This document shows, piece after piece, positions 40,616 through 60,736 of a DNA stretch of 64,000 nucleotides. Each line of letters opens with the position of its first letter. Position 1 is the stretch's first letter. The DNA comes from a virus (Duplodnaviria > Heunggongvirae > Uroviricota > Caudoviricetes). A program made the translations under genes and the position numbers. The stretch covers positions 1 through 64,000 of IMG/VR virus record IMGVR_UViG_3300012007_000010; one strand, 5' to 3'. A model generated the notes under the pieces. That model was not told where the DNA came from, did no database searches, and saw only the letters and a list, made by a program, of their open reading frames with translations.

Positions 40616-41124
40616 CCCATCTTCTCATACTGTGAGCGCAAGGTCTCTATAGTCCTTGCGTTTTTTGTGGCCAGCGCCGTGAAGTGCCCTCCATACGAAA
40701 GGTTCATAGGTCCCCACAGCGCAATGTCAGGCAACAGTATTGCCGTATCGTTTTGCTGCACGTCCTTCAGCGTCATCCGCTCACCGAACGGATTCTTGCT
40801 TACCCACTCCGAAGCCATCGGCGACCGCCGCTCGGAAAGGTCGGCAACAATCGTAAGGTGGGCAATGACATTCAGGTTCCCCTTCCCCGTCATCTTGGCC
40901 CGTGTCTGACGCATGGCAGCCAGGATGGCATCTGCAGTAGTGCCCGGCAGCGATGGTGCTACGATTGTCATTTCCGTCTCGCAGTAGCGAATGAGCAGTG
41001 CAGGTAGTATCTCGGCCAGCGACAGGTCGCCATAGCCGTGAAAGAAGGCGGTTCCACTTTCTCCAAGATTTTCGCGCAGCGTAAGCAAATGCTTGGGTGC
41101 GCAGCAAGGTTCTATCAGTTGCAT
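40612..41124 (-). CDS. hypothetical protein (170 aa)
   Basis: Last gene of the minus-strand morphogenesis block. Confidence 0.45.
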   Translation of the reverse strand: MQLIEPCCAPKHLLTLRENLGESGTAFFHGYGDLSLAEILPALLIRYCETEMTIVAPSLPGTTADAILAAMRQTRAKMTGKGNLNVIAHLTIVADLSERRSPMASEWVSKNPFGERMTLKDVQQNDTAILLPDIALWGPMNLSYGGHFTALATKNARTIETLRSQYEKMG

Positions 41125-43501: not shown

Positions 43502-45382
43502 TTAGCGACGGTGGTTGCGGGCGGCGATTTCCTCGTCCTGCTTGCGCAAGGCGGCGGCAATTTCCTTGGGAGTCATGCCCGGCTTCACAACACTCTTGAT
43601 GCCGTTATACTGGGGAGCCTCGCCTGTTCCGTTATCCTGCGGAATACCAGCACCGGCGTCCACCATCGGTGCGGGCTTCTCCGAGAATTCCTTCACCTCG
43701 CTCTGTAGTTCCTTCACCTGCTTCTGCAGCTTCTCGATGGTAGCCACATGCTCGGCAATCTTAGCATCCTTTGCGGTGATGGTAGCCACATGCTCTGCGA
43801 TGGTCTTGCCCTGCTCGTCCTTCTCGACGGTCAGCGTCTCAATGGTCTTGTCGCGCTCGGCGAGGGTGGCGTTGGCCTGGTCGCGCTCTTCGGCAATGCC
43901 GTTCAGCGTAGCCAGCGTTTCCTTCAGCTGCGCTATCTCCTTGTCCTTCTCGGCAATCTTCTGCTCCGCCGAGTGCAGTGTTTCCTGAATCTTGTCGATC
44001 TCAGCAGCGGCGTTCTCCTGAGCCTCCTGCGATGCAGGGTCGGTAGCGGGTTCTGCGGCAGGGGCTTCCTCCTGGGCGGCGGGCTGCTCCTCCTGTGCGT
44101 TCTCTTCACTGACAGCGGGTGCCTCGGTTGCTGCTGCTCCCTCGGCTGGCTGTTCCGTAGCAGGAGTCTGCTCCTGCGTGGCTGCGGGCTGCTCGGCAAC
44201 CTCTGCGGCCTTCTTCTCTTCGTCTGGCATATCTTCTTGGTTTTGGGGTTTGGCTATCTCTACAGTCTCAGGACCGAAAAAGCCCTGCTCTTCTTTCTTT
44301 ACATGACCGTCATCGACTATTCTCAGGTCGCCACGGCTCGTAGCGACAGCGGCTTTCTGCTGTGCGTTGAGCTTGGCCATCTCCTCTGGCTCCTCACCCT
44401 CCGGCTGCTCGCCGTCGGGCTCGTTCTTCGGCTCCGCCGTCACCAGTCGTGCGGCGGTCAGCGTCTCGTTGGCCAGTTCGTAGATGCACTCAATGGCGCG
44501 GTTCATGTCGCCTATCTCATCGACCAGTGCCGGCATCACCTCCTGCGCCTCAAACACCTTTCCCGTCAGCATGTCGGCAGTAACGAGTGGGCGATTCTCG
44601 CGCACAGTCTGGTGGAACTGTTCGGTATCTCTGTCGAGTTCTGCCTGCAGCTTCTCATACTCGCCTGCGGCGGCCTCACGGTACCAGTCGTTCTTCTCGG
44701 GGCAATCCTTGCCGACGAGCTCCACATAGCGGTAGCCGTCCTGACTGACGGTATCATGGGCGACAGCCCAGAAAGCGGCCATCGTGCCGATGCAGCCGAA
44801 CTCGTCGCGAGGGTTCATCACCACCACGCGGTCGCACCGACAGGCAAGGTTCACACCGCTGCTGCAGCACATGCCGTCAACGAAGGCGACGGTAGGCTTG
44901 CCGGCCTGGCGGCAGTCTTCAATCATCATCTCGTAGTCGTTACGGCACGATGCCTGACCGCCCGGCGTATTGATGAGGAACAGGTGGCCTATCACCTGCG
45001 GAATCTGGTTGGCATACATCACCTGATCACGGAAGTCCTTGGTGCCATACGAGCAGCCGTCGCCGTCGCGGGTCACGGGACCGTCAACCACCACTACGTT
45101 GATTATCTCGTCGTCCTCCTGCAGTTCCTCGTCGTTCCAGTACAGATGGCGCTCTATGCGGTGGATGTTGCCGACGTACAGCTTATCCTCGAAGTTGGCC
45201 CCTACGGTCTTGCCGTCCTTCTGGTAGCCCTTCTTCGAGAGGAAGTAGCCGTGCTGCTTTTCTATGTCGTTGGGCAGGTGCAGCTCGATGGCCTTCTTCA
45301 GCGCATCGGCATACGTCTGTGCCAGGTCTGGGCGGAAGTCCCAGACCTTGTTGTGCATGATGTTCAATAGCCCGATATTCAT
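43502..45382 (-). CDS. prohead protease (S49/ClpP-like) fused to scaffold domain (626 aa)
   Basis: INTPGGQASC and MCCSSG segments are typical of ClpP/SppA-fold head-maturation proteases (lambda gpC-like). The C-terminal 300 aa is an acidic low-complexity region plus coiled coil (KEIAQLKETLATLNGIAEERD...), typical of scaffolds. Confidence 0.7.
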   Translation of the reverse strand: MNIGLLNIMHNKVWDFRPDLAQTYADALKKAIELHLPNDIEKQHGYFLSKKGYQKDGKTVGANFEDKLYVGNIHRIERHLYWNDEELQEDDEIINVVVVDGPVTRDGDGCSYGTKDFRDQVMYANQIPQVIGHLFLINTPGGQASCRNDYEMMIEDCRQAGKPTVAFVDGMCCSSGVNLACRCDRVVVMNPRDEFGCIGTMAAFWAVAHDTVSQDGYRYVELVGKDCPEKNDWYREAAAGEYEKLQAELDRDTEQFHQTVRENRPLVTADMLTGKVFEAQEVMPALVDEIGDMNRAIECIYELANETLTAARLVTAEPKNEPDGEQPEGEEPEEMAKLNAQQKAAVATSRGDLRIVDDGHVKKEEQGFFGPETVEIAKPQNQEDMPDEEKKAAEVAEQPAATQEQTPATEQPAEGAAATEAPAVSEENAQEEQPAAQEEAPAAEPATDPASQEAQENAAAEIDKIQETLHSAEQKIAEKDKEIAQLKETLATLNGIAEERDQANATLAERDKTIETLTVEKDEQGKTIAEHVATITAKDAKIAEHVATIEKLQKQVKELQSEVKEFSEKPAPMVDAGAGIPQDNGTGEAPQYNGIKSVVKPGMTPKEIAAALRKQDEEIAARNHRR

Positions 45383-45455: not shown

Positions 45456-46631
45456 CTATTCTACCTCCGGTGTCCGGTGTGTAGCTGGGAAAGCAGTGAA
45501 CAGCCGCTTGCGGCTCTGCTCGCACGCCGCCCTTCTGCGCCGCGCCTCTGCCGCACGGGCGCACTGCCGCTCGCGTGCCGCCTGTGCCTCCCTCTCTCGC
45601 GCGATATTATATATAGGTGTGCCCACCGCCGCCTCGCCCAGCGCATCCAAGTTCTCGGCGATATAGTCGCACGCCATCGCCATCGCCTGCTGCGCGTCGG
45701 TCATCGAGTCGCGCCGTGCCAGCCGTTCCTTTGTCGGTTCCAGTGACACACGCCGGCTCTCGACATAGAAGGCCAGTGCTATGCGCAGTTTCTTCAGCAG
45801 CGTCTTCATCACAGTACTATCACCGCCGTTGTTGGCGAAGTCCACAACAGCGTCCAATAGTCGTGCGCCGATGCGGGGCTCCAGATAGGTGTCCTGACAA
45901 AAGCGAATATCCCTCACCAGCGAGACATACGCCATGCGCTGGCTCTTGATGTCAAGGAACTTGTCGAGCACCGTCGCGGTCTGGAAGAGCAGGTCCTTGT
46001 TCAGGTAGAAAGCGTCGGCCTCCTGCCACATCTCGGTAAACAGTTTCTCTCCCTTCGCGTCGGCTTCGAGAAACAGCAGCAGCGAGTCGATGGCACGTCC
46101 GGCTCCGCCCAGTGCGTCCTTCACGGCGCGGTCTTTCGCCTTCTCGTCGGCAGCGTCGTAGCTCTCGCCTACGGATATGTTCATGCCGCCGCCCTCGTTG
46201 AACGAGATAGTCAGCAGTCCGGCCTTGTTGGCCAGCATCCTGTACCACTCGATGCGCTGGCAGATGCGTATCAACTGTATGGTCTTCATGTCCTTGGCGG
46301 GCACCTCCTTCTCGCCCTCCTCCGGCGTGGTATAAGTCTCGCGGTACTTGCCCTGCGCCACCTGCTCCAGGCGCTCCGTCACGTCGGCATGCGCCAGACG
46401 CGGATCCTGCTTCGCCTTGCCCGTAGGCCGCACGGTGGTAGCGGTAATATCCACATACTCCTGCCGCAGCCGGTCATACTCCGTCAGCACATGCTGGTAG
46501 AGCCTGCCGCCCAGCAGCGGCTCCAGTGCCACCGCTTCCTCTTCCTCCAGGTAGCCGAACAGCTTCTCCGGCTTATCCCACCGCGCCGTAGGCATCAGGG
46601 CTTGTATCTCGTTCTGAGTTGTTATTAACAT
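45456..46631 (-). CDS. hypothetical virion-morphogenesis protein (391 aa)
   Basis: Long ORF with its own late motif. Function unknown; too small for a typical portal. Confidence 0.5.
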   Translation of the reverse strand: MLITTQNEIQALMPTARWDKPEKLFGYLEEEEAVALEPLLGGRLYQHVLTEYDRLRQEYVDITATTVRPTGKAKQDPRLAHADVTERLEQVAQGKYRETYTTPEEGEKEVPAKDMKTIQLIRICQRIEWYRMLANKAGLLTISFNEGGGMNISVGESYDAADEKAKDRAVKDALGGAGRAIDSLLLFLEADAKGEKLFTEMWQEADAFYLNKDLLFQTATVLDKFLDIKSQRMAYVSLVRDIRFCQDTYLEPRIGARLLDAVVDFANNGGDSTVMKTLLKKLRIALAFYVESRRVSLEPTKERLARRDSMTDAQQAMAMACDYIAENLDALGEAAVGTPIYNIAREREAQAARERQCARAAEARRRRAACEQSRKRLFTAFPATHRTPEVE

Positions 46632-46691: not shown

Positions 46692-49600
46692 TTACAGGTA
46701 TTTCTCGCCGTGCCTTTGCGCTTCCTTCTGCATCTTGTTATACATGTTGGGTATGCCCTCGGGGCCCGTCCAGATGTTCCGTGCGTAGATGGGCTGGTTC
46801 AGCCGCTCCAGCAAGGCTTCCTGTATGGCACTGTTGCGGTCGAGCGCAGTGAGCATCTGCTCCATCCCCATGCCGCCAGTTCCCTCAGCCGTCAGCCCTC
46901 CGCCATCAGCCATATCCTCGAACTCCCCGATGTTGCCGTCGGCAAAGGCTCTCACGCCAGTGCCGCGACGGCGGCGGGTGCTCAGCCCGGAAATAGAGCC
47001 GCCGTTATACAGCGTTTGTATATCGCGCCAGATGCCGGTGTCGTCCATGCGCATCAGGCGGGTGGTGCGAGCGTCGATGATGGCCTCCGGCCCCGCCTCG
47101 CCCACGAGGTGAAACTCCGGCCCGTTCGTAATGTGGGTCTTTGCTCCCTTGCCCATGTAGCGGGCGCGGTAGGTCTTACCGTCCGCCCCGTCCACATTGT
47201 ACTGTCTGCCAGGTGTCAGCGAAGCCGGATCGGTCAGCTCGTTCACGTTACCCGTTTTGTAAGTCAGCATGCCCGTCGCCAGACGGCCAGCTGATACCGA
47301 TGCACCCGTGGCCTGAGAAATTTCAGATTTATGCTTACCAATCTTACTGGCTGCTATTCCCATTAGTCCGCCGAGCACTCCTGTGAGTGCAGCAAATATT
47401 GCAGCACCGGCAATCGGGTGAATCTTCAAGCACTCTGCAAGAATAGCCGGTAGTGAGCCTGCCACTTTTGACTGATCTTTCGACCAGTTGGTAGTTAGCA
47501 TGGCTATAGCCGTCTGTCCAGCGGTCTGCAGGGCAATCATCTGGAATTTCTGCTCCGTCGATAGGTTGTCGTTGCTCATGGCCTGATAGGCGATGCCATA
47601 CAGATTAGCAGCCTGCGTCATCTTAGCAAACATATTGCCAGTACTCTGCGTCATCTGTTTGCTTGTCTGGTTCTCGCCTTGCTTGATCTTCTGTTGATTC
47701 TCAAGAATGGCCTCTGTTGCATGGTTGCTGGCAGATATATTAGCATTGGCCACGCTGTTATACATATTGGCAGCGTTCTGAGTAGCCGTTTCCACATGTT
47801 CCTCCGTCAACTGCGTCGGGTCGGGAATCTTGTTCGGCATCTCAGCCATTGCGTCGCTCATCTGCTGCATGGCGGCAATGCCCTGATCGGCATAGCTCTG
47901 CCACAGCGTGCCCATGCGCTCCATCACCGCCTCCAGTTCGTCCTCGCGTATCTGCCACGGCGGTAGCACCACGCCCGGTATCTCAGCCAGTGAGGCAGCC
48001 ATCTGTGTCATGGCTTCCACGCCTCCCTCGTTGTAAGCCTGCCACAACTCGCCGATGGCGGTCATAGCCTGAGCCTTCTCCTCCTCGGTCATCTGGAAGA
48101 AAGGCTTCTGCAGGAACACGCCGTCGGCAGTCTCGCCGCCTGCGGGAGCCAGTGCCGGTGCTGCGGGAACGTCTGCTGGCGTAGAAGCGGCTGGAGCCTG
48201 ACCGCCCAGTGCCTGAGTCAGTGCATTCACGGCCTGCGTGTTGGCATCCGTGGCAGCGGTGTTGGCGGGGTCGGTCGCCGTCCACATCGGCTTCTGCTCT
48301 GTGTCTCCTATAGGCCAGTATGACGTCGGCTGCTCCGTCTGGGCAGGTTCCGTCGGCTGGATGGGGGCGATTATCTGCCCGCTGCCGTCGAGGGCAAAGC
48401 CGTTCTCGTCGCGCTTCAACTGGCTTGCGTCGGTGAAGCCGGTTGATGCGCCCTGTCCCACCTGTGCCCACAGCGCCTGTGTGTTGGCTATCACAGCCTG
48501 CGTGTTCGCATCAATACTCTGGTTCTGCAACATGGCGTTGATCTGGTCGGTGATGGTTTCGCTCATCTTCTTGTTCAAGTCATCCATCAGTTTGCGCCAC
48601 GCTTCCGCCTGTGCGTTCTGCACTTCGATTTCGTGCTGCCGCTCCAGTGCCTGCCGCTCGTCGAGGTATTCATAATGAGCCTTGGCATCGCTGGTTCCCG
48701 CATCGTCGATGACGACGTAGGTACCTGCTCCTGGCCCGCCTTTGCCGGTCAGGTTCAACTTCGCCAGCTCATTGTAGTATTCGGCATCCCCCGCATGGCT
48801 GGCCTCGAAGACGCCCTGCAGCGAGCTCGTCAGCAGGTCGGCCCACTCGCGCAGCGACGTATAGAGGCGGTTCTGGCTCTCCTCCTGAATCTTCAGCAGC
48901 TCGGCTTTCTGCTGCTCCTGCTTCTTCGTTTCCTCGGCCAGCGTCAGCCCCAGCGAGAGGCGCACGTTCTCAGCGTCGCGCTCGGCGTTCGTCGCCATCA
49001 GCAACTCGCGCTTGCTCTCTGCCAGATGGTTCTCTTTCTCCATCTGTTTCGCCAGCCTACGATGCTCTTCCGCTTCCGCCTTCAGCGCCGCCATGCGCTG
49101 GTTGGCCTGCACGCGGTACATGTCGTACTGTGCCTTCTGCATCCGCATCTGCACCTCTATCTGCTTCATGGCCAGTCGCGAGGCCACGTTGTCGCTCGCC
49201 GCCCCGGCACCTATCAGACTGTTGGCGCGGCTCACCGAGTCCTGCTGCATGCCAAGCTGTGCCAGTGCCTTATCGAAGGTGGCCTTCATCGACATGCCGC
49301 CGATGCCACGGGCGTCGTCGTTCCAGATGATTTCCACGTCCTTCTTGATCTGGCTCGCCTCCTTCTTCACCGCGTCCTGCACCTCCTGATATGTCTTGCG
49401 CAGCTGTCCCATCACGGCCTGCTTCAGCATGTCGCTCTTGCTGATTTCCTCGGCGGTGGCGGTCATGCCCTCCTTCACCATGCGGCGCAGCAGTTCGTCG
49501 ATGTCTATCGAGTAGGCGTCGGCGGCCTGCCGCAGATAGAAGGCCATCTCGTCGTAGCTCTGGGCGGTTATCTGCTCGTTGGAGTATTTCGGCTCCTTGC

Positions 49601-52600
49601 CCTGCCGTGCCAGTTCCTCGTTCTCGCGTCGGTACTTGGCGGCCAGCACACCCATCTTGTCGAGGTTGTCCTGCAGGTTCTTCGTGATGCCGTCGTATGG
49701 TCGCTCCTTGGCCAGCGTGTCCTCGATGAACTTCATCTGCTTTCCGATGGCCTGGGCAGCCTTCAGGAAGCTACGCTCCGCACTGAGGTCCATGTCCGAC
49801 TCCCACTTGTGGATCATAGCCGCCCCCTTCTCGCCCGTCTTGGCGATGTCCTTGGCAAACTTGTTGGTCCTGGCCACCGTGCCTCTGACGAACTCCACCG
49901 TGTCGCCTGTGCGCTCGCTGATGATACGGTAGATGGCATCCATCTCTTCCTTCGTCACCTCGCCGCTCTTGTCGGCATATATCTTCTGCAGTTCGGCGCG
50001 TCGCGTCTGCCACTCGTTTTCGTTCTGAATGGTGCGCCGCCACGCCTCGCCCTCGGTTATCTCCTCGTCGTTGCGGGCCTGCTCTATGCGCGTTTTGCGC
50101 TCCGTGTAGTAGGCATCCAGCTCGTGCAGGTAGGCATCTATCTCGTCGTGCCACTGTTTCTTGGCCGCCCGCTGTTGTTTTGGATCCTTCCAGTCGCCGG
50201 TGTTCGTCAGGTGGCGGGCGTGAAGCTCGTCCTGAATCTTCAGGCGCTCAGTGTTGTACCACTCGATGACCGTGCGCATGTCGCTCGACATACCCGCCTC
50301 GATGGCTTTCTTCAGAGCCTTGTCCTCTGCCAATACAGCCTTCACGTCGGTATCAGTCTGGATGGCGTTGACGAAGTCCTTCATCTGCTTGCGACGGTTC
50401 ACCAGCTGTTCAGCCGTCATGTTCTTCCAGTCGGTACTCTCGGCTGGAAGACGGTTGCCCCAGATGTTGTTCGTCTCAGTATCGAGCGTGCTGAAAGCAT
50501 CGAAGCCCTGCTGTATCTTGTCGCGTGCCCTCTGCAGGCGGCTGCTGTCGATGAACTTCTTGTTCTTCTCCAGCACGTCGGTCACAAACTGCTTGGTCTG
50601 CTGCTGCTCTGCCGTTTCCAGTTCGTCCACGTTCTCGTTCACTCCCTCCAGCGCACGGGCCAGTTCGGCATAGGCATCGTTGCGCTCCTTGGCCGACAGG
50701 TCGCTCTGCCGTAGCAGTGAAATCTGTGCGTTGATATTATCTTTCAACTGGCCGACGATAGTAGTGGTCGATTCTTTCAGGTCTTCCTCCGTAGCTCCGA
50801 GGTCTTCCTGATAGAGCCTGCCCGTCTTGGCATTCTCACGCTGCATGTCGAAGTACTCCTCCAGGTAGTCGCCACGAAGGTTGTTGCCCCAAAGTTCTTT
50901 CGAGGTAGTCCAGATGTATCGCCCCTTGCTCATGCCGTAGTCGCTCTTGTAGTAGTCGATACCGGTAATGTCCTTGATGGCATTGCGGTTCAGCCCGTAG
51001 TTCTGTTGCAGGTAGCGAGCCATCCATACGGCAGTCAGCTGTTCGAGCGAGGCATTGTCGTTATAGAGCGAGCCGAGATCTTTCTTCAGCTGGTCGCTGG
51101 CCACGAGGTCACCATTGGCATTGGTGGTGTAACTCTTCGACAACATCTTCCTGAAGGCCAGTCGTGCGCTGGCGGCCTGATCGCCCGTCATGCGGTCGTC
51201 CTCGGTCATCTGGCTCACGATTTTTGCCCAGTCGTCGCTCAGGTCGTCCTGGTGTTTCTTTTCGTTCTCTTCGATAGATGCCTGCTTCTGCTTCATCAGT
51301 ATCTCGCGGCGGATGGCAGCGGCAATCTTGTTGTGGGCAGCGGCCACCATCTCAGCGCGGTCGTACTCCGTGAGCATGAAGCCCAGGTACTTGCTGTAGT
51401 TCTGATTGATGTTGGCTATGGCGGTACGGTGGTTGTCGGTGGCTTTCGTCATGCGGATTTCCGCCTCGGTGGCTTTGTCCGTTCCGGCGGTCATCCCTTC
51501 GGTGGCTTTCCTGGCAGCATCCAGTTCCGCCGTGGTGTCCTTCAGATGGTCGAAGTACACACCCAGCTTCTCCGTAGCCCTGTCGGCCTCCTGATTGGCT
51601 TCGGCCAGTGCCTTCTTCTCTGCGTCCACACTGGTTACAATGTCGTATATCGCCTTGCCCAACGTATAGAGCAGGGCGATGACGGCCACGATGATGTTGG
51701 CCTTCATCGTCGTGTCGAGACCTTTCCATGCCGTTTTCAGTCCGTTGATGCTGAAGATACTCACCTTCGATGCGGCACCCATGCCGGAGATGGCTCCCGT
51801 GGCCGACTCCACGGCCTCGCCAGCCTGTTCGCCCGCCTCCTTGGCGTCGCTCAGTGCGTCGCCCATATCGCCCACCACGTCGGCAGCTTCTCCCACGCCC
51901 TCTGCCGCATCCGATATAGCATCGGTGGCGTTGGCTGCTTTTTCCAAATCTGCGGCAGCTTTCTGGGCGCTCTCTTTCAGGTAGTCGAACACGCTGCCCG
52001 CTGCCGCCGGTATGCTGGTCAGTCCGCTCTTGATGGCAACTACGGAAATGACGGTAGAGTTGAATGCCGTGTTGAGCGGTCCGCTTATCAGGTCAACGAT
52101 GACGCGCAGGGCGTCAATCACGCCGCCCAGCGCATTATTTGCCGACGTGCCTACCCACATCTCCTCGAACTGGTTCTTCAGTCGCTCCCACTTGGCGGCG
52201 GTCGTCTCGCTCATACGGTCGTACTCCTGCTGTATGGCAACATTCTCCTCATAGGCTTCGGCGGCTATACCCAGATGCTGGCGCAGCACATCGACGTTCT
52301 GCGACAGTCCGGCGAACACGATACCGGCGCGTGCTCCCTGCTGGTTCAAGTCCTTCATGATGTCCTGCATACCGCCCATGCCCAGCATCTTCTCAATGTC
52401 GTCGGGGTTCATGCCCGCATCCTTGATGTGCTGGAAGATGGCAAGCATGGCGTTCATGCCGCCGCCTGCCTCGTCGAACATCTTGCGCAGGGCCTCGGGA
52501 GCCATGCCGATAGCCTTGGCCACCTCGAAGGCGTTATTCCTGATGGCGGGAATCATTCGCGACAGGGCCGTGGCCGACATCTCGACTCTCATACCAAGGG

Positions 52601-55600
52601 CATCAACCGTAGAACCGAGGGCTGCCACCTGGTCGATGGTGATGCCGCTCTGAGCACCCACGGCTCCCACACGTTTTACGAAGTCCGTAATCTGTGGAGC
52701 GGCGGCGGCTGAGTTGGCACGCAGTTGGTCGATGGTCGAAGCGATTTTCTCCATAGCCACAGCCGTTGCGCTGCTGCCCTCTATCAGTCCCTTGTCCATA
52801 TCCTTCTTAATCCTGTTCACCTCGCCCGTAGCCAGAGCCACCTTCATCATCTGCGTGGCACCGTCGGCTCCCATTTCAGGCAGGGCGACAAGCATCTTAT
52901 TGGCAGCCTCGGTGAAGCCCAGTATGTCCTCCTCAGTCTTCAAACCCAGCTGTCCGGCCTTGGCACTCAACTCGGTCAGAGCTACCAATGTAGTCCTCGT
53001 ATCAAGGTCTCGCAGTCTGTCCGTCAGCCTGCCTACCTGTTCGGCGGTCATCTGCGTGGTCTTGCCCACCTCGCCCATGCGGTCGGAGAGTTGCATCAAG
53101 TCGCCCAGCGTGCCAGATACTTTCTGCCACAGTTCATTGAAGCCCATATACATCACGACATAGGTCTTCAGGCGGCTGAAGGCTTTCTCCCATGCGGTGG
53201 CGCTGGCCTTGGCCTGACCCTCCATCTCCTTCATCACGTTCTTGGCGTTGCGCACCTGCTCGGCGAAACGCTTATATTCGTCGCTGTTCTGACCGAGCGA
53301 GTCCTGCATCTGGCGCAGTTGTCCGTCGGCGCGTTTGATGGCGGCCCGCAGCTCGTCGAGGTTCACGGCGTTGGCGGGTGTCTCTATCAGCGTCCGCATC
53401 TTCTCCTGCGACATGTTGACGTTGTCTTGCTCGAACTTCAGCGAGCGCAGCTTCTTCGTCAGGTCGTCGAGTTCCTTCTCCTGAGCGTCCACGGCGTTGT
53501 CCAGGTCGCGCTCGGCCCTTATCTGGCGTATCAGTTCCTCGCGGCGGCGCTCCAATGCCTGCGTGGCCTGCTGTATCTCTTGCGCACTGGCGGCAAATCC
53601 TTTCTTGCCAGCGCCATCGGCAATCTTCTGCGCGTCGGCCAGCTTCATCCACTCGCCCGTGGCCTCCTTCAGCTCCTTGTTCATCTCGCCGATGGTCTTG
53701 CGCAGCTCCTCCCACCGTTTCTGCCCGTCGGCGGTAGAGCGGTCCTGAGCCATCGCCTCGGCCTCCAGCACCTTGATACCCTCCTGCATCTCCTCGCGGG
53801 TCATGCGGCGGGCCTTCTGCACCTGCTCCTCTACCTCCACCAGTCCGAGGGCTTCGGCCTTCTGCTGCTTGTAGTAGTCGAGCCGTTCTTTGGCACTGTC
53901 AAGATACCATTTGTTCATGGTCACCAGTTCCCTTGCACCCACACGGTGGTCTTCATCCCCCTCAATCTCGTCATTGAGTTTGCGCATCTTCTTTCTGTCG
54001 CTATCGCCAAACATGGCGCGGCCAAGAGAAGAACGGTTCCTTACTTTCTCTGACAACTTATCGCGCTGGGCTTCAAGCGAGGCAAGCCTTTCCTCGGCTT
54101 TCTTTACTTCCTTCTCCCAGCGGTCTATGTCTTCGGTTGCCTCTTTGATGTTGTCATCAAACACCGACACATGCTGGCTCAGCTGCTCGTCAATCGACTG
54201 CCCCGACGTGGTGACCACCGTGCCTTTCATGTGCTCGCTGAACCGTGCTATCACCGCGTCTGCATTCTCAAAGGCAGCCTTCGCCTTGTCGGTCTTGCCC
54301 TTCAGTGCGTCGAGCTGGGCGGTGAGTTTCTCTATCTCTGCGGTCACGTCGTCAAACGTGCCTTTGCCGCTGGTAGATGGATTCTCAATGAGAGCTCTAT
54401 ACGCTTTCAGGCGCTTGATGGCTTCGTCGAGCTGGTCCATGCTGGCACCGTCAAACCCGCCAGTCTGCGACTTTGCCAGCGTCGCCTGTTGTTCCTGCAG
54501 CTCGTCGGCATCCTTCTTCGCCTTGCGGGCGATCTCTATACTATATTTGTTAAGGTGTTCCTCGGCGGCGACAATCTTCTTTGTTAGCTCCGTAGCTTCG
54601 GTGCTACCCGACTTATACGATGCAGCCAACTGCTTGGCGGCCTCGATAGCCTCGCGAATTTCGGCGGTGCTGTAGTCTCTCAGGTTGCCGTTCAAGCGGG
54701 CGGCACGCTCTTCGCGGGTGACGGATGCCTGCTGCTCCTGCAGAGCGATGGTGCGCTCCAGTTCGTAGCGGTAGCCTGCCAGACTCTCCTTGGCGGTCTT
54801 GGGATCGTCAATGAGCCGCTGCCAGTACTGCTGCTGTGTCTTCAGCGCCGACTCCGAGAGAGACGTGCCTTGGTCGAGCTGCTGGCGCATCAGCTGGTCC
54901 TGTTCCTTGCGGCGCTGTGCGGCTTCCTCCAAAGCCTGCGCCTCGCGGCGTGCGCTTCGCTCTGCCTCTATGCCGTACTGCTTCAGGTGCTCCTCTGCAT
55001 CGAGGATGGCCTGCGACAGGCGCCTGGCAGCAGGACCGCCGGAGTCGTAGGTATCGATTAGCCGACGGCCTGCCTCGATAGCGGCACGTATATCCTCGCC
55101 GTTCTTCTTGCTCAGGTCGCCGAACAGTGTGCGCACCTGCTGCTTGTCGGCAGTGCGGCGGCGCTCGCTCTCTATATCGTTGATGCGTTTCAAGGCTGCC
55201 TCGGCATCGCGTGCTTCGTCGCTTCCGCGCTTGGCACCGTCGGCCATAGCCTGCCAGTAGCGCTTCACCTCGGTCAGTCCAGCGGTGGAGAGGTTGTTCA
55301 GGTCGCGCATCTGCTCGTTAATGTACTGTGCCTGGATGTTTGCCTTGCGGCGGTTCTCCTCGTTGGTGAGTGCCTTGACGGCCAACTCGGCTTTCTTGTA
55401 GGCTGCAGATGTCTGGCTGACACCGTCGCGCACGGTCTCCCAGTAGCGCTTTGTCTCGGCAAGGTCGGCGGTAGATAGCTTTTCCAGGTTGTTCAGGCGC
55501 TTGCGCATCGGGGCCTGTATCTCCTGGCGGCGTTTCTCCTCCTCCTTGGCAACCTTCTCCAGGTTGCGCTCATATTCCTTCAGTTCCGTGCTGCCGTGCT

Positions 55601-58600
55601 CGGCGCCGGTTATCATTCCCTGCCAGAACTTCTTCGTCTCTTGCAGGGCGTCGGCAGAGAGATTGCGGATGTTACCCATGCGCTGGGTCATCATGTCGAG
55701 CACGGGCTGCTGCTTCAGGCGGTCGAGCTCTGCCTGATACTGGCGTATGAGTCGGGCATTCTTGACCCACTCCTCGCTCTCGGGCTCGATGGCGCGGTTC
55801 CTGGCTTCGAGCACCTTGACAGCCTCGGTCATGGTGTCGATGGTGAGCCGCTGTGCCTGAACTTGCTTCTTCTGGGACTCCAGTCGCTTCTCGGCGTTAT
55901 CGTCAATCTTCTGGTCATATTCTGCCAACGCCTTGCGACCCTCGTTCACCTTGTCGTTCAGTTTGCCTTGCTCGAACTCAGACTTCTTCAGCTTCTCACT
56001 CTCCTTATCCAGAGCGTCGGCATTCTTACCGTGGGCCTGTGAGAGTTCTTCGGTCATCTGACGGGCTTCGCTGCGGTTGTTATTGGCGCGTACATCGGCA
56101 GCGGCGGCAGCCTCTTCCTTCTTGGTTATCTCGTCAATCTTCTGTCCGCGCTTAGCCTCCAGCTCCTGTTTCTTCTGCTCCAGGGCGATGCGCTTCTGGT
56201 CTTGCTCGCTCAACTGCTCCTGCTGCTTGGCGGCATCACCCTCGGCGTTGGCTTCCTCCTTCACGGCCTTGGTGGTGTCCTCCAAGGTCTTCTTTTTGCG
56301 GCCACGGCTCTTGGCGCCTTTCTCTACAGCCTCCGTCTCCTGGTTCTGGGCGGCGGTCGATTTCTGGGTCTCCTCAGTGGATATGCCCATCATCTTCGTC
56401 AGGTCACTTACCGACTTCTCCCAGAGCTTCTTCAGACGGTTCTTGTCGGCTCTTGCCTTCTTGACCACGTTCTCGTTGTAGTCGTCAATCTCGTCCTTCA
56501 GTTGAGCCTTGGCGAGGGCGGCGTCAGTACCGCTACTGGGCAGGCTGGCATAGCGCTGCCGCATATCTTTCAGCTTTTTGTCAGCCTGCTCATATTCCTC
56601 GTTCATCTTGTCGAGGGCTGCCTTGCGGCGCATCACCTCTGCCTCCTGTGCCTTTATGGCGTCGGTCTGGTCCTTCGTGGCCTCGGTGGCATCCTTGGCG
56701 GCATCGGCTCCGCGACGGGTGGCATCGCTCACCTCGTCGGTGGCCTGCTTCACACCCTTGCTCACATCGACGAGCGCCTTTGCTTTCTCAATACGGGCAT
56801 CGTAAATATCCTTGACATACTGGATATGGACAGAGCCCACATCGGCACTAAGGTCTACGTCGCCGCCCATGAACATACCGTCCTTGCCTTGCAGGATTTT
56901 TTTGAGCAGCGCCTTGGCATTGGTCTTGTCATCCTTCCAACCGTATCGCTGCTGGAAAGCAGACACCAGGGCATCCACCTGACTGCCAGCCAGCGAGAGG
57001 GAACCGTTGTCGTTCTTGATCTTGCCAATCGTTCTCATCTTGCCAATCAGGAACTGCTGCACCTCCTCTGGGTCCGACATGTGCAACTTGCCAGCCTTGT
57101 AGCCCACGGTCGAAACCTTCTTGGCTTCTTCGAGGGCGGCTTTGGCTTCCTCCTGACTCATCTGCCTGACAGCCTCTGTCTCAGCTTTGATAGTCGCGAT
57201 GCGCTCCTTCTGCGCGTCGGTGAGCCTAACGGTCTTCTGCGTCAGCCCTTCAGTGGCAGCCGCTTGGCCGTTCCTCATCTTCATGGTCTGTATGGAGATG
57301 TCGTGCGACTCCTTCTGCGCCGCTTCGAGTTCTGCTTCCACGTCGGCGAGGGTGCGTTTCTTCTCTGTATCCTCCTCCACGGCCTTCACCTCACCGTTGA
57401 TAACGGCGGTCAGGTCTTTTATCTCCTTGCTATAGGCGGCAACCTTCGGCACGTTCTCCTCGACGTTCATGAAGAACTTATTCATGAAGCCGCTCTTTAC
57501 CAGTCCACCGCCCGACATAAGTTCCCTGACGGCAGCCATTGCCTCACCCTCTCCCTCTATGCCGTAACGCTCCTGGAACTTGCCCAGCAGCTGACTGATT
57601 TTCTCCGGACTGCTCTCGATAGACATGATGGTCTTGCCCATGTTGGCGGGGTTGATTTCTCCCAGCGCGTCGAAGAGATACCGCTGTGCCTCTTCGCGGT
57701 TGCCTATTTGCCACTTCTCACCCTCTTTCTTAAAGGTGGCCAGCTGCTGCTTCTGGTCGAGCATGGCCTGCGCCTGCTCCTTACTCAGGTCTTTGTAGGC
57801 GTTGGCTTCCTCCTTGACGGCAGCGGCGTTCTTCTCCTGCGTGGCGAGCATCTGCTTGCGTTCCTCGTTGAGCGCAGCTATCTTTATCTTCAGTTCGTCG
57901 TTGCGCTTTATCAGCGACTCCACTGTTACCTTTTCGTTCTCTGCAGCTTTAGCGGCAGTCTCGCCGGCCTTCACCTCCTTCTCCTTGGCAGCGGTGTTTT
58001 CCTCCGTGGCTTTGGTCTCTTCCTTCTTGGCGGCTGCTGAATCCTTAGAGGTCTGCTGTTCCTTCTTGGCGGCTTCGGCACTCTTGTCGGTAGACTGTGC
58101 CTCCTTCTCTTTGGCGGCACTAACTTTATCCGCAGACGCACCGGCAGCGGCAGGACCTGCCGACGTGCTCATCTTGGCGAGTTCTTCATTCACCTGCTTC
58201 AGTTCGTCGTCAATCCCCTTGACCTCGGTCTTCATCGTCTCGGCAGCCTCGCGGAAGCTCTTGGCGTTGTTCTCGTAGGCGGTCGCCTCCTGGTTCAGCT
58301 TGTCTATATTCTTCTGCTTGCGTTCGGCATCCTTCTTCTCGTTGTCGATGCGGTCCTGGATAGCGGCCACCACCTTGCGCTGTTTCTCCACCTCCTTGTC
58401 CTTGGCGATGGCGTTGGCAGCGTCTATCGACACCTGCTTGGCCTTCTCGTCGCGCTCGGCCTTCAGTGCGGCGATGTTCTCGGTGCGCTGTTTCACCTCC
58501 GCCTCGGCCTCCTTGCGCTGACGGGCGGCTTCCTCCACCCCCTTGCGGGTGAGCTGGCTGCTGCGCTCGCGGGCATCGTTGGCATCCACGATGGCACCCG

Positions 58601-59255
58601 TCAGGCGCCTCTCGTCATCGGTCTGCTGCTTGATGGCGGCATTTACCTGCTTCAGTATGTCGTTATACTCCAGCCACTCGTGGCTCATGTGGGGCAGCAG
58701 TCGCATCAGCTCCTGTATGCCGTCGGCCTCCTGCTTCAGGTCCTGCGACGAGATCTTACTGCCCTCTTTCCCGATAGACTGCAACATCTGCTCGGTGCGC
58801 AACTTATACTTCGCCAGGTTCTCCAGGTTCTTCTGCTGCAGGGCGTCCAGCTCCGCCATGTTCTTCTGGTAGTCCTTTGTGCCGGGCAGCAGTGCCTTCT
58901 TCGCGTTCTCGGCGGCATTATAGGATGCCTTCTGAAAGGCGGCGCTCATCTGGTCGAGCGTGCCTGTGTTGAAGGCGTCGATGGCACGCGAGAGGGTGGT
59001 CACACCCTTGGCGAGCGTGTTCATCGCGGTCTCGAATGATTTAAGTTCCCGTTCCTGCGTTCTCAGCTTCGCGCCGAGCTTGTCGAGTTCTTCCTGCGAC
59101 TTGCCCGTCTTGATGCCGTCGCTGATGGCAGTCTTGGTCTTCTCAACCTCAGTGCGCATGCTCTTGGCCGATTCGCGCAGCGCGTCCATGGCAGGGTTGG
59201 CCTTGGCGGCGTTGGCGCGGAAGTCGATGCTGATAATTTCGTGTCTGGATGCCAT
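46692..59255 (-). CDS. giant tape-measure-like protein (4187 aa)
   Basis: A single uninterrupted 12.5-kb ORF. The N-terminal ~2500 aa is almost pure coiled coil with ~55-aa tandem repeats (NLS..L.E(T/V)KRYWQ.M.DG...GS). The central Ala/Gly/Met-rich region resembles tape-measure core regions. The C-terminus has hydrophobic TM-like helices (LPAILAECLKIHPIAGAAIFAALTGVLGGLMGIAASKIG) and Gly-rich segments. The many antisense ORFs inside it are GC artefacts. Confidence 0.65.
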   Translation of the reverse strand: MASRHEIISIDFRANAAKANPAMDALRESAKSMRTEVEKTKTAISDGIKTGKSQEELDKLGAKLRTQERELKSFETAMNTLAKGVTTLSRAIDAFNTGTLDQMSAAFQKASYNAAENAKKALLPGTKDYQKNMAELDALQQKNLENLAKYKLRTEQMLQSIGKEGSKISSQDLKQEADGIQELMRLLPHMSHEWLEYNDILKQVNAAIKQQTDDERRLTGAIVDANDARERSSQLTRKGVEEAARQRKEAEAEVKQRTENIAALKAERDEKAKQVSIDAANAIAKDKEVEKQRKVVAAIQDRIDNEKKDAERKQKNIDKLNQEATAYENNAKSFREAAETMKTEVKGIDDELKQVNEELAKMSTSAGPAAAGASADKVSAAKEKEAQSTDKSAEAAKKEQQTSKDSAAAKKEETKATEENTAAKEKEVKAGETAAKAAENEKVTVESLIKRNDELKIKIAALNEERKQMLATQEKNAAAVKEEANAYKDLSKEQAQAMLDQKQQLATFKKEGEKWQIGNREEAQRYLFDALGEINPANMGKTIMSIESSPEKISQLLGKFQERYGIEGEGEAMAAVRELMSGGGLVKSGFMNKFFMNVEENVPKVAAYSKEIKDLTAVINGEVKAVEEDTEKKRTLADVEAELEAAQKESHDISIQTMKMRNGQAAATEGLTQKTVRLTDAQKERIATIKAETEAVRQMSQEEAKAALEEAKKVSTVGYKAGKLHMSDPEEVQQFLIGKMRTIGKIKNDNGSLSLAGSQVDALVSAFQQRYGWKDDKTNAKALLKKILQGKDGMFMGGDVDLSADVGSVHIQYVKDIYDARIEKAKALVDVSKGVKQATDEVSDATRRGADAAKDATEATKDQTDAIKAQEAEVMRRKAALDKMNEEYEQADKKLKDMRQRYASLPSSGTDAALAKAQLKDEIDDYNENVVKKARADKNRLKKLWEKSVSDLTKMMGISTEETQKSTAAQNQETEAVEKGAKSRGRKKKTLEDTTKAVKEEANAEGDAAKQQEQLSEQDQKRIALEQKKQELEAKRGQKIDEITKKEEAAAAADVRANNNRSEARQMTEELSQAHGKNADALDKESEKLKKSEFEQGKLNDKVNEGRKALAEYDQKIDDNAEKRLESQKKQVQAQRLTIDTMTEAVKVLEARNRAIEPESEEWVKNARLIRQYQAELDRLKQQPVLDMMTQRMGNIRNLSADALQETKKFWQGMITGAEHGSTELKEYERNLEKVAKEEEKRRQEIQAPMRKRLNNLEKLSTADLAETKRYWETVRDGVSQTSAAYKKAELAVKALTNEENRRKANIQAQYINEQMRDLNNLSTAGLTEVKRYWQAMADGAKRGSDEARDAEAALKRINDIESERRRTADKQQVRTLFGDLSKKNGEDIRAAIEAGRRLIDTYDSGGPAARRLSQAILDAEEHLKQYGIEAERSARREAQALEEAAQRRKEQDQLMRQQLDQGTSLSESALKTQQQYWQRLIDDPKTAKESLAGYRYELERTIALQEQQASVTREERAARLNGNLRDYSTAEIREAIEAAKQLAASYKSGSTEATELTKKIVAAEEHLNKYSIEIARKAKKDADELQEQQATLAKSQTGGFDGASMDQLDEAIKRLKAYRALIENPSTSGKGTFDDVTAEIEKLTAQLDALKGKTDKAKAAFENADAVIARFSEHMKGTVVTTSGQSIDEQLSQHVSVFDDNIKEATEDIDRWEKEVKKAEERLASLEAQRDKLSEKVRNRSSLGRAMFGDSDRKKMRKLNDEIEGDEDHRVGARELVTMNKWYLDSAKERLDYYKQQKAEALGLVEVEEQVQKARRMTREEMQEGIKVLEAEAMAQDRSTADGQKRWEELRKTIGEMNKELKEATGEWMKLADAQKIADGAGKKGFAASAQEIQQATQALERRREELIRQIRAERDLDNAVDAQEKELDDLTKKLRSLKFEQDNVNMSQEKMRTLIETPANAVNLDELRAAIKRADGQLRQMQDSLGQNSDEYKRFAEQVRNAKNVMKEMEGQAKASATAWEKAFSRLKTYVVMYMGFNELWQKVSGTLGDLMQLSDRMGEVGKTTQMTAEQVGRLTDRLRDLDTRTTLVALTELSAKAGQLGLKTEEDILGFTEAANKMLVALPEMGADGATQMMKVALATGEVNRIKKDMDKGLIEGSSATAVAMEKIASTIDQLRANSAAAAPQITDFVKRVGAVGAQSGITIDQVAALGSTVDALGMRVEMSATALSRMIPAIRNNAFEVAKAIGMAPEALRKMFDEAGGGMNAMLAIFQHIKDAGMNPDDIEKMLGMGGMQDIMKDLNQQGARAGIVFAGLSQNVDVLRQHLGIAAEAYEENVAIQQEYDRMSETTAAKWERLKNQFEEMWVGTSANNALGGVIDALRVIVDLISGPLNTAFNSTVISVVAIKSGLTSIPAAAGSVFDYLKESAQKAAADLEKAANATDAISDAAEGVGEAADVVGDMGDALSDAKEAGEQAGEAVESATGAISGMGAASKVSIFSINGLKTAWKGLDTTMKANIIVAVIALLYTLGKAIYDIVTSVDAEKKALAEANQEADRATEKLGVYFDHLKDTTAELDAARKATEGMTAGTDKATEAEIRMTKATDNHRTAIANINQNYSKYLGFMLTEYDRAEMVAAAHNKIAAAIRREILMKQKQASIEENEKKHQDDLSDDWAKIVSQMTEDDRMTGDQAASARLAFRKMLSKSYTTNANGDLVASDQLKKDLGSLYNDNASLEQLTAVWMARYLQQNYGLNRNAIKDITGIDYYKSDYGMSKGRYIWTTSKELWGNNLRGDYLEEYFDMQRENAKTGRLYQEDLGATEEDLKESTTTIVGQLKDNINAQISLLRQSDLSAKERNDAYAELARALEGVNENVDELETAEQQQTKQFVTDVLEKNKKFIDSSRLQRARDKIQQGFDAFSTLDTETNNIWGNRLPAESTDWKNMTAEQLVNRRKQMKDFVNAIQTDTDVKAVLAEDKALKKAIEAGMSSDMRTVIEWYNTERLKIQDELHARHLTNTGDWKDPKQQRAAKKQWHDEIDAYLHELDAYYTERKTRIEQARNDEEITEGEAWRRTIQNENEWQTRRAELQKIYADKSGEVTKEEMDAIYRIISERTGDTVEFVRGTVARTNKFAKDIAKTGEKGAAMIHKWESDMDLSAERSFLKAAQAIGKQMKFIEDTLAKERPYDGITKNLQDNLDKMGVLAAKYRRENEELARQGKEPKYSNEQITAQSYDEMAFYLRQAADAYSIDIDELLRRMVKEGMTATAEEISKSDMLKQAVMGQLRKTYQEVQDAVKKEASQIKKDVEIIWNDDARGIGGMSMKATFDKALAQLGMQQDSVSRANSLIGAGAASDNVASRLAMKQIEVQMRMQKAQYDMYRVQANQRMAALKAEAEEHRRLAKQMEKENHLAESKRELLMATNAERDAENVRLSLGLTLAEETKKQEQQKAELLKIQEESQNRLYTSLREWADLLTSSLQGVFEASHAGDAEYYNELAKLNLTGKGGPGAGTYVVIDDAGTSDAKAHYEYLDERQALERQHEIEVQNAQAEAWRKLMDDLNKKMSETITDQINAMLQNQSIDANTQAVIANTQALWAQVGQGASTGFTDASQLKRDENGFALDGSGQIIAPIQPTEPAQTEQPTSYWPIGDTEQKPMWTATDPANTAATDANTQAVNALTQALGGQAPAASTPADVPAAPALAPAGGETADGVFLQKPFFQMTEEEKAQAMTAIGELWQAYNEGGVEAMTQMAASLAEIPGVVLPPWQIREDELEAVMERMGTLWQSYADQGIAAMQQMSDAMAEMPNKIPDPTQLTEEHVETATQNAANMYNSVANANISASNHATEAILENQQKIKQGENQTSKQMTQSTGNMFAKMTQAANLYGIAYQAMSNDNLSTEQKFQMIALQTAGQTAIAMLTTNWSKDQSKVAGSLPAILAECLKIHPIAGAAIFAALTGVLGGLMGIAASKIGKHKSEISQATGASVSAGRLATGMLTYKTGNVNELTDPASLTPGRQYNVDGADGKTYRARYMGKGAKTHITNGPEFHLVGEAGPEAIIDARTTRLMRMDDTGIWRDIQTLYNGGSISGLSTRRRRGTGVRAFADGNIGEFEDMADGGGLTAEGTGGMGMEQMLTALDRNSAIQEALLERLNQPIYARNIWTGPEGIPNMYNKMQKEAQRHGEKYL

Positions 59256-59288: not shown

Positions 59289-59852
59289 TTATCGTGAAAC
59301 CTTGTCGCGGGTACTGGCCCAGAAGAGGGCGCGGTTGATGGCGTTGCGCCCCTCGACGGTGTCGCCTGCCGAGAAGACCATATACACCAGTCCGGCGAAG
59401 GAGAAATACTTCGTGGCGTAGGCGGCGAAGTGTTTGGCCTGCGTGCGCATCTCGGCCACTACATGCGGGCGACCCTTCATCTTGCGGGTTGGGATGGCAA
59501 TGGGCTTCCACTTCTTATGCGGGATGGCGGGCACGGGACCGTTATAGGGGTTGTTGAAACCGACGCCGAGCTCCAGAAACTTGGCGTAGTAGATGTAGCG
59601 GGCGCGGAACACCTGCTCGTCGCCCCCGCTGGCGGCGAAGGTCATCCACTGCAGCGATCGCCTGAGCTGTCCGCTGCGCTCGTTGATTACTCGTCCGTAG
59701 TTATCCATCGTGCGGTCGTGGGCAATCTTCTGGAAATTGTTTATCCACCGCATGATGTGGTCGTCGTGCCAGTTCCATTTCCACGACAGTACTTTGTCGC
59801 CGTACTTGTCGCCTATCCAGCTGGCGCCTTGCATCTCAGATATGAGGTCCAT
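59289..59852 (-). CDS. hypothetical tail-associated protein (187 aa), co-transcribed with the giant gene
   Basis: W/Y-rich ORF 33 bp upstream of the giant gene. It has its own late motif. Confidence 0.5.
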   Translation of the reverse strand: MDLISEMQGASWIGDKYGDKVLSWKWNWHDDHIMRWINNFQKIAHDRTMDNYGRVINERSGQLRRSLQWMTFAASGGDEQVFRARYIYYAKFLELGVGFNNPYNGPVPAIPHKKWKPIAIPTRKMKGRPHVVAEMRTQAKHFAAYATKYFSFAGLVYMVFSAGDTVEGRNAINRALFWASTRDKVSR

Positions 59853-59878
59853 CGTATTTACTCCTTTTTTTTGTGGGG

Positions 59879-59913
59879 AAGATAGAGCGCGGAGGGGCCG
59901 GAATCAAGGGCAG
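59879..59913 (-). promoter_or_regulatory. late-promoter motif copy (CTGCCCTTGATTCC-N-TATCTT)
   Basis: Minus-strand ctgcccttgat tccggcccctccgcgctc tatctt. Confidence 0.45.
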
Positions 59914-60145: not shown

Positions 60146-60736
60146 TTAAATGATTGTTGTCTCTTCGGGTTGGTGGGTCGATGGTATATTGGGTTGGCGG
60201 GTCAATGCTGCATCGGCTTCTTCGTTTTCCCTCTCCTCCTCCTCCATCTGTCGCACAAGAACTTCGGCCAGGCAGTGCTGCCATCGACGGTGCAGCTCGC
60301 CGCCCTCGCGCTCGGCCACGTCCATAGCGCGGTACAACTTCCGCTCCGTGTCGCCCCACTGGCCCTTATACAGCGCTGTCGGCTCCGCCAGCTGCTCCTC
60401 TACGGAGGCCAGCAGGCGCATCGTGAGGCGTGCCTCGGCGCTGCGGGCGGTGCGGATGCGATTGGCGAGGGCGTGGTAGTAGGAAGCCCCCCTCTCATCC
60501 CCCGAGGGGGGAGCCTCTTTCTCTCCTTCCCTCGGGGAGGCTGGGTGAGGGTTGGCCATGTTTTCCAGCAGCGCCTGTGCCGCCAGTTCCGCGTCGTCGG
60601 GCTCTGGGGTGAGCGGTGCGGGCTTAGTGCCCTCGATGCGGAGGGGAACAGGCTCCACCCCCTGCCCCTTCTGCTGATGGGTCTGGGTGGCAGCCTTACG
60701 TCGGAAGAATTTCTTGATAGTATCTGTCAGTTTCAT
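60146..60736 (-). CDS. hypothetical protein (~196 aa from MKLTDTIKKFF)
   Basis: Protein-like ORF with an Ala/Glu/Arg-rich helical region. The ORF-track start at 60799 is less likely. Confidence 0.45.
   Translation of the reverse strand: MKLTDTIKKFFRRKAATQTHQQKGQGVEPVPLRIEGTKPAPLTPEPDDAELAAQALLENMANPHPASPREGEKEAPPSGDERGASYYHALANRIRTARSAEARLTMRLLASVEEQLAEPTALYKGQWGDTERKLYRAMDVAEREGGELHRRWQHCLAEVLVRQMEEEERENEEADAALTRQPNIPSTHQPEETTII

Follow-up and report, generated by a model that had tools for sequence, protein, structure and literature searches.

The 64,000-nucleotide stretch of phage DNA analyzed here (IMG/VR virus record IMGVR_UViG_3300012007_000010, positions 1 to 64,000; hereafter the window) carries on its minus strand, at 46692..59255, a gene for a protein of 4187 amino acids (aa). 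Our analyses indicate that this gene likely encodes the tail tape-measure protein (TMP) of a long-tailed phage, most likely of the siphovirus type, from a sheep-rumen metagenome. We have little doubt that the protein is a tape-measure homologue of a long-tailed phage. This identity, which the original prediction had put forward from the features of the sequence, is borne out by homology (PF10145, PHROG families, and BLAST matches), by the gp10-like gene upstream, and by a protein with a tail-tube fold in the same operon. The 4187-aa protein is an extreme-size member of an already known kind of protein. The novelty lies in how widely and how continuously length varies within an abundant clade of uncultivated rumen and gut phages, and in the modular origin of that variation.

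Tape-Measure Homology in the Central Region

The homology to known tape measures lies in a core at residues 1962–2401 (52053..53372, minus strand), which was delimited with Pfam, PHROGs, and BLAST. When nine slices of ~600 aa were scanned against Pfam and PHROGs, residues 2082–2305 (52341-53012, minus strand) matched PF10145 (PhageMin_Tail) with 43.0 bits against a gathering score of 33.2 (E 6.3e-11), that is, above the curated threshold, although in these slices only. Nine PHROG tape-measure families matched residues ~1990–2400 in the same scans, the best being phrog_25337 (E 7e-24) and another phrog_28 (E 2e-21), and a match to TMP_3 at residues 2417–2498 stayed below threshold. A tblastn search with residues 1901–4187 matched 110 phage records, mostly annotated tape measures, all of them at residues ~1960–2430. 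The best of these was the "minor tail protein" of Microcystis phage Mae-Yong924 (29% identity, E 8e-38); pairwise blastp against the minor tail protein of Mae-Yong924-2 gave E 2.6e-48.

Scans of the intact protein were nearly empty. Whole-protein searches of Pfam and NCBIfam returned noise only, and the whole-protein PHROG scan returned only weak TMP matches. Even with a true homologue, the Mae-Yong924 minor tail protein, phmmer found nothing in the intact 4187-aa target despite the BLAST E-value of 2.6e-48. This is because the HMMER filters reject so long a target; the match emerged once the protein was sliced. For this reason, giant tape measures are probably under-annotated in metagenomes, as profile searches with the intact protein missed a core that slicing found. 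In the central and C-terminal part, where it had been suggested that Pfam might reveal a TMP core and lytic domains, the core was therefore found once the protein was sliced, and no lytic domain was: no slice had a Pfam, PHROG, NCBIfam, or PDB match to a muralytic or peptidase domain (lysozyme, M23, or similar). A PDB sequence search with residues 1901–4187 was empty, and a megablast search of the giant gene against 50,697 phage records produced no match.

Integrity of the Open Reading Frame

The giant gene is an ATG-started open reading frame (ORF) without interruption, as had been claimed for this 12.5-kb region, and its assignment draws on the ORF itself, its recovery in two assemblies, and its homologues. 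The identical 4187-aa protein is encoded on an ENA scaffold of 138,214 bp and again on a Logan contig of 27 kb that was assembled separately from run SRR948090, a sheep-rumen metagenome (PMC4704652). That the same ORF is found in two independent assemblies indicates that it is no assembly chimera. The ATG start is supported because residue 1 of the relatives aligns with residue 1 of the 4187-aa protein.

It is hardly credible that the ORF is chimeric or mis-assembled, or that it consists of two genes fused by a sequencing error. The source is a metagenomic scaffold and the gene appears as two ORFs in three related loci (L001, L002, and L004), but, besides the agreement of the two assemblies, the giant gene has no N runs, its product aligns collinearly, in segments end to end, with the 3798-aa protein of L014, and relatives as long as 3981 aa exist. 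In L001 and L002 the gene is broken at N runs, which mark scaffold gaps, and the possibility that the C-terminal ~800 aa are a separate gene in relatives, through fusion or fission, was rejected on these grounds. At the other gap-free loci, L004 excepted, the giant gene is one ORF of 2296–3798 aa.

L004 alone has a true break in frame, on a single metagenomic contig. There, at 4350-4480, an out-of-frame deletion of ~45 aa divides the tape-measure gene into two ORFs whose stop and start codons overlap (ATGA). A sequencing error, a pseudogene, or genuine fission of the gene could each account for this. Close to the structural genes, this contig also has a resolvase gene and an IS605 OrfB/TnpB-like gene (14149-15985).

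Architecture of the 4187-aa Protein

The protein begins with a conserved N-terminal domain (residues 1 to ~230; 58566..59255, minus strand), which aligns from residue 1 with the proteins of L001, L002, L007, L009, L010, L012, L013, and L014 at 24–34% identity. A similar domain is present in 57 of the 87 family representatives described below. It is followed by a hypervariable, charged, helical extension (residues ~231–1810; 53826..58565, minus strand), as judged from composition and anchor mapping. By composition, the first ~1950 residues are highly charged (29–41% Lys, Arg, Glu, and Asp) and poor in Pro and Gly, and matches of this region to SMC, Rad50, and SbcC are at chance level only. The original prediction of ~2500 aa of coiled coil is consistent with this composition in character and too high as to its length.

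Self-comparison revealed three tandem 62-aa repeats with the motif LSxxxLxExKxYW at residues 1190–1375 (55131..55688, minus strand). The tandem copies span residues 1190–1251, 1252–1313, and 1314–1375, a fourth copy lies at 1458–1519, and the copies share 33–36% pairwise identity (E 1e-9 to 4e-8). The 62-aa repeat is the first half of a higher-order module of ~143 aa, two full copies of which (residues 1314–1457 and 1458–1599; 54459..55316, minus strand) match each other with E 5e-15. At least three tandem repeats therefore exist, as had been noted; each unit is 62 aa long, not ~55, and the repeats are nested in the larger module. A further duplication relates residues 472–635 to 681–847 (score 126 against 35 ± 5.7 for shuffles), and these ~165-aa units are richer in Gly and aromatic residues. 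Two 47-aa repeats (residues 3734–3822; 47790..48056, minus strand; 40% identity, E 1.7e-8) are located in an Ala/Pro/Gln-rich linker. Tandem Repeats Finder detected nothing relevant in the giant gene at the DNA level, and the protein repeats are therefore old, diverged duplications.

The composition of residues ~2000–2600, with 28–32% Ala, Gly, and Met, agrees with the Ala/Gly/Met-rich core that had been noted. The transmembrane-like helices of the original prediction were likewise confirmed by hydropathy, at residues 2517–2541 (51633..51707, minus strand; Kyte-Doolittle 19-residue mean 1.93) and 3937–3972 (47340..47447, minus strand; mean 1.99, conserved in family alignment A1), with a weaker hydrophobic segment at 2376–2420. 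The most conserved part of the protein is the C-terminal domain (residues ~3880–4187; 46695..47618, minus strand), which contains the motif GKTYRARY...GPEFHLVGEAGPEAIIDA and is 52–65% identical across relatives in the family alignment, with many invariant columns. This domain had no match in Pfam, PHROGs, the PDB, or the phage collection, and tblastn of the last 330 aa against phages found none. An AlphaFold2 (AF2) model of the last 800 residues consists of long helices and has no compact fold, at low confidence (predicted local distance difference test score, pLDDT, 50). The modeled helices would fit an extended protein, yet at that pLDDT they are uninformative. The overall picture of an extended alpha-helical chain with hydrophobic segments, as would suit a tape measure, is drawn from composition and hydropathy together with this low-confidence model.

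Conserved Gene Order around the Giant Gene

All 12 of the 12 related loci have a common gene order: protein A, protein B, the giant gene, 0–3 variable genes, a ~400-aa protein, an S49 protease, the probable capsid protein, a ~200-aa protein, and a ~170-aa protein. The atypical order remarked on in the original prediction is therefore real, being kept at every one of these loci and largely collinear with the genome of a cultured siphovirus, Polaribacter phage Leef_1. Also as described there, the giant gene is followed by a 391-aa gene, a protease-scaffold gene, and a further gene, of 479 aa.

Protein B (187 aa; 59289..59852, minus strand), encoded directly upstream of the giant gene at every locus, is an HK97-gp10-like tail or neck component, as indicated by PF04883, hhalign, and its position. 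PF04883 was matched by four of 11 members of the protein B family (best E 1.4e-4) and was the sole family matched by several members, and protein B aligned in hhalign with the gp10-like protein preceding the Mae-Yong924-2 tape measure (P 5e-4). Its comparison with Leef_1 gp13 was not significant. Upstream of protein B, and conserved in that position in relatives, is protein A (~196 aa; 60146..60736, minus strand), a predicted helical protein of ~165–200 aa across loci that had no family match in Pfam and PHROG scans. We consider protein A a candidate tape-measure chaperone. Proteins A and B were also considered as tube proteins and were rejected, as A is predicted to be helical and B is gp10-like.

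Downstream, the 391-aa protein (45456..46631, minus strand) is conserved at 57–82% identity in all loci. It had no Pfam or PDB match and a weak phmmer match (E 2e-4) to Leef_1 gp07, an "adaptor"; its sequence suggests that it is possibly a connector or adaptor. The next gene (43502..45382, minus strand) encodes an S49 (SppA/ClpP-type) head maturation protease (PF01343, E 3.7e-9; phrog_53, E 4e-36) with a coiled-coil, scaffold-like C-terminus. The 479-aa protein (41967..43406, minus strand) is the probable major capsid protein based on its position after the protease and its conservation. It had no capsid family or PDB sequence match, and the capsid family was not significantly related to Leef_1 gp42. 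At its C-terminus it has an Ig-like domain, PF18998 (Flg_new_2, Listeria-Bacteroides repeat; residues 349–423, E 8.5e-11), that is kept in relatives.

The 202-aa protein (41210..41818, minus strand) is, according to its predicted structure, the probable major tail (tube) protein. A model built from 30 homologues has a tail-tube fold (pLDDT 74.6; predicted template modeling score 0.70), and its BFVD matches include an uncharacterized 187-aa protein of Leef_1 (E 1.4e-6). The last gene of the operon encodes a 170-aa protein (40612..41124, minus strand) that is conserved in relatives and had no family match. PDB searches with the L003 portal and with profiles of the 202-aa, 391-aa, protein B, and capsid families were empty, and Pfam and PHROG scans of ~45 other proteins of the window and loci were mostly so.

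Just past the right end of the window, on the same contig (in L015 1-9110, which also takes in 60146-64000 of the window) and on the strand of the giant gene, are genes for the large terminase subunit TerL (639 aa), which matches TerL of Mae-Yong924-2 at 1e-40, and for a 611-aa portal protein, which matches the Leef_1 portal at 5e-17. Together with the tube-fold and gp10-like proteins, these indicate that the genome encodes a probable tail tube protein and other components of long-tailed phages. The portal gene directly precedes that of protein A in L002 and L003; here the two are separated by a ~4.4-kb insert on the opposite strand, the genes of which include one for a 504-aa GIY-YIG protein and one for a YopX protein.

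In some relatives, the variable genes after the giant gene number 1–3 and encode 300–890 aa. Elsewhere in the window, on the plus strand at 23213-27882, are genes of 1163 and 388 aa whose homologues lie directly after the tape-measure gene in L001 (11648-16585) and near that gene in L013. They are candidates for tail-tip or fiber genes that have been relocated in this genome. Within the 1163-aa gene, GC content falls to 40% over the stretch from 24 to 26 kb, against ~57% elsewhere, as might be expected of an acquired domain.

Length Variation in the Family

An exhaustive family search with the core retrieved 369 representatives (50% identity) at E <= 1e-30, the best 150 of which were examined. 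Among these 150, 87 were full-length, ranging from 1717 to 3981 aa with a median of 2722, and the 4187-aa protein of the window exceeds all 87. It was correctly described as unusually large in comparison with ordinary tape measures; within its own clade it is the top of a continuous distribution of 1.7–4.2 thousand aa.

Anchor mapping placed the start of the core anywhere from residue ~230 (233) to ~1860 among relatives, while the distance from the core to the C-terminus was ~2060–2350 aa. The standard deviation in length across the 87 representatives was 486 aa for the N-terminal part and 180 aa for the rest. Nearly all length variation in the family thus lies N-terminal of the core. When copy number was compared among relatives, the ~143-aa module was present in 0–7 copies, and this number correlated with the length of the N-terminal part (r = 0.49). 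The module covers only about a quarter of that part, and other helical segments must therefore come and go as well.

The homologues were found only in contigs from metagenomes and metagenome-assembled genomes, these being ENA and JGI contigs and one 86-kb IMG/VR contig. Eight of the contigs that bear homologues were binned to rumen Bacteroidaceae, Prevotellaceae, or Bacteroidales, and Prevotellaceae or Bacteroidaceae are the probable hosts of the phage with the 4187-aa gene. With at least 87 representatives, a constant C-terminal part, an N-terminal ruler from near 0 to ~1900 residues, and countable modules, the family is a natural series in which to study how tail length is set and why it varies.

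Comparison with Characterized Tape Measures

The functional paradigm of the tail-length ruler is gpH of phage lambda, in which internal duplications and deletions are tolerated. The mechanism proposed here is alike; gpH (853 aa as against 4187 aa) has no detectable homology to the giant protein, and its gene is flanked by the G/GT chaperones and the tip genes, whereas the giant gene is flanked by the gp10-like and head genes.

Homology is found to the TP901-1-type tape measures (PF10145; PHROGs 25337, 28, and 167), with which the protein shares the ~440-aa core. The nearest characterized of these, the 1011-aa minor tail protein of Mae-Yong924-1/-2, is similarly preceded directly by a gp10-like gene and has helical and hydrophobic segments. 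The 4187-aa protein is four times longer; 1960 residues precede its core, which in the Mae-Yong924 protein starts at residue 12, and its ~1800 residues after the core are without characterized relatives.

A 5002-aa tape measure, gp96, is known from Thermus phage P23-45, its N-terminus being a virion RNA polymerase (PMC10770324), so that 4187 aa is neither a record nor an unprecedented size. The tail of the related phage P74-26 is nearly 1 µm long. As in the protein of the window, the giant tape measures of these phages have membrane segments and an N-terminal region of great length that precedes the typical tape-measure parts. Unlike it, P23-45 has DFDGD RNA-polymerase and metallopeptidase motifs, neither of which was found in the 4187-aa protein. 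No sequence similarity between them was found, the Thermus phages belong to another host phylum and habitat, and the N-terminal part here is made of helical repeat modules.

Leef_1 (Helgolandviridae) has a 927-aa TMP and a tail of 138.7 nm, or 0.150 nm per aa. It has homologous portal, TerL, primase, S49 protease, and tube-like proteins, and the same unusual circular order of TerL, portal, ..., neck, TMP, ..., protease, capsid, and tube, with which the giant-gene locus is largely collinear. The unusual gene order is thus a lineage trait common to this clade and a cultured siphovirus. The genomes differ in size and composition, that of Leef_1 being 37.5 kb with 30% GC and the contig here at least 138 kb with ~57% GC, and Leef_1 has lysogeny and replication genes between the TMP and head genes, unlike here.

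Proposed Function and Alternatives

We propose that the conserved C-terminal ~2100–2350 residues (core, hydrophobic segments, and C-terminal domain) would anchor in the tail-tip initiator and later form or line a channel into the cell. The tube protein would polymerize along the extended helical chains to their N-terminus, where tail-completion proteins would cap the tail. Chain length would in this way set tail length at ~0.15 nm per residue, and the 62-aa repeats and 143-aa modules would be the units by which the N-terminal ruler grows or shrinks, one module corresponding to ~21 nm. By analogy with characterized rulers, it is moderately likely that the whole chain measures a tail of ~0.6 µm; 4187 aa at ~0.15 nm per residue predicts ~0.63 µm, and the family range of 1717–3981 aa would by the same analogy predict tails of ~0.26–0.60 µm. 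If the length rule is true, these tails would be among the longest known and would belong to abundant uncultivated phages of dominant rumen and gut bacteria. It is a tentative and rather doubtful proposal that this clade of rumen/gut Bacteroidales phages tunes tail length 2.5-fold (~0.26–0.63 µm) by gain and loss of helical modules, including the ~143-aa (~21-nm) unit, at the head-proximal end. Were that true, no such tape measure outside the P23-45 group would be longer than the one in the window.

Several observations weigh against the tape-measure reading proposed here. About 85% of the protein, the C-terminal domain included, had no match to a characterized family in Pfam, PHROG, and PDB scans, and the Leef_1 TMP showed no detectable homology to the core profile (hhalign P 0.044). 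Upstream, no G/GT-type frameshift chaperone pair was recognized and no overlapping −1 ORF pair was seen; downstream, there are no baseplate or tip genes after the giant gene in this genome. The canonical position, with a G/GT pair before and tip genes after, is thus not that of the giant gene, this being a usual, not a strictly defining, feature of tape measures. No sheath or tip proteins were identified, no sheath search having been made over the full 138-kb contig, so that the siphovirus type is most likely rather than certain, with myovirus as the other candidate. A tail length of ~0.6 µm is pure extrapolation, and, by analogy with P23-45, in whose giant tape measure the N-terminal part is an enzyme, not every residue need measure length.

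The main rival to a full-length ruler builds on that precedent. It holds that only the conserved C-terminal ~2100–2350 residues are ruler and channel, and that the hypervariable N-terminal ~1800 residues are cargo or an accessory part, for example one that enters the host by injection, resides in the neck or capsid, or binds DNA or host factors, on the model of the virion RNA polymerase of P23-45 gp96. Such a composite is in keeping with an N-terminal part that varies from ~0 to ~1900 aa across relatives while the rest is constant, with the separate conservation of the N-terminal ~230 aa, and with the two ~165-aa units at 472–635 and 681–847, which are richer in Gly and aromatic residues and look less like plain coiled coil. 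We nonetheless regard it as improbable. No catalytic motif (DxDxD, HExxH, P-loop, or CxxC) occurs anywhere in the 4187-aa protein, and its N-terminus has no RNA polymerase DFDGD motif of the P23-45 gp96 type, nor is there a D.D.D motif anywhere. Sliced scans of residues 1–1900 gave no domain match beyond coiled-coil noise and weak TMP PHROGs, so that no enzyme signature supports another role for the N-terminal part here. The composition of this part is typical of extended helices, and it varies by modular helical repeats, as expected of ruler evolution. In a bolder variant of the modular proposal, some of the hypervariable N-terminal ~1800 residues would not be ruler and would instead form an accessory region, delivered or neck-lodged, that has a function of its own.

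It is less probable still that the phage has a short tail or none and that the protein, though it contains a TMP-like domain, serves inside the head or in ejection, the alternative offered in the original prediction. The location of the giant gene between the portal and the head genes (protease and probable capsid) and the lack of baseplate genes after it in the window would suit such a role, and for Mae-Yong924-1, the closest relative by BLAST, no more than a ~40-nm tail-like structure was described (PMC8875630). These points are outweighed, in our view, by the tube-fold protein and gp10-like tail component that share the operon, the collinearity of the genome with that of the siphovirus Leef_1, and the membership of PF10145 and the matching PHROGs among tape-measure families of long-tailed phages. 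The large variable genes that follow the giant gene in some relatives also stand in the usual position of tip genes. We therefore favor a tail tape measure of a long-tailed phage.

Promoter-Like Element

The claim that the 391-aa, protease, and 479-aa genes each have their own late promoter has a basis, as an element TGCCCTTGATT-N17-(G/T)A(T/A)(A/C)TT is found 54–92 nt upstream of each of them. For the giant gene, the element is located ahead of the preceding gene, that of protein B, as TGCCCTTGATT-N17-TATCTT at 59878..59912 (minus strand), 60 nt upstream; it was identified by motif match and probably drives both protein B and the giant gene. The consensus is TGCCCTTGAT(T/G)-N17-(G/T)A(T/A)(A/C)TT, with minus-strand sites at 59912, 46685, 45449, and 43498. 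The 11-mer TGCCCTTGATT had nine matches with at most one mismatch (six of them exact), compared with 1.1 expected from shuffles. The element fits a common late regulon and may represent a late-gene promoter family of Bacteroidales phages. Generic scans for sigma-70 promoters and terminators were not above chance, and a hairpin followed by a T-run is present at 60021-60060, between proteins A and B, in this genome. The same element also occurs on the plus strand, at 23140, 27885, and 40065, and precedes the 1163-aa gene and a gene at 39977-40615.

Other Features of the Window

Several further genes were observed on the minus strand of the window. The gene at 13457-16999 encodes a 1180-aa primase-like relative of Leef_1 gp27 (E 1.7e-25), that at 9466-10317 encodes an SPFH/Band-7 protein (phrog_200, E 1e-60), and two adjacent paralogous small proteins (phrog_98 and phrog_8684) are encoded at 4789-5748.

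The plus strand carries a complete diversity-generating retroelement (DGR) at 30998-34573. It is composed of a target gene of 444 aa (30998-32332) with the variable region (VR) at its 3' end (32195-32323, 129 nt), an Avd-like gene (32499-32894), the template region (TR; 33079-33207, 129 nt), and the reverse transcriptase gene (33260-34573), all on that strand. The TR and VR are 85% identical over the 129 nt, and all mismatches are at TR adenines. The 444-aa target is probably a receptor-binding protein. Homologues of the reverse transcriptase and of the target adjoin the giant gene in L007.

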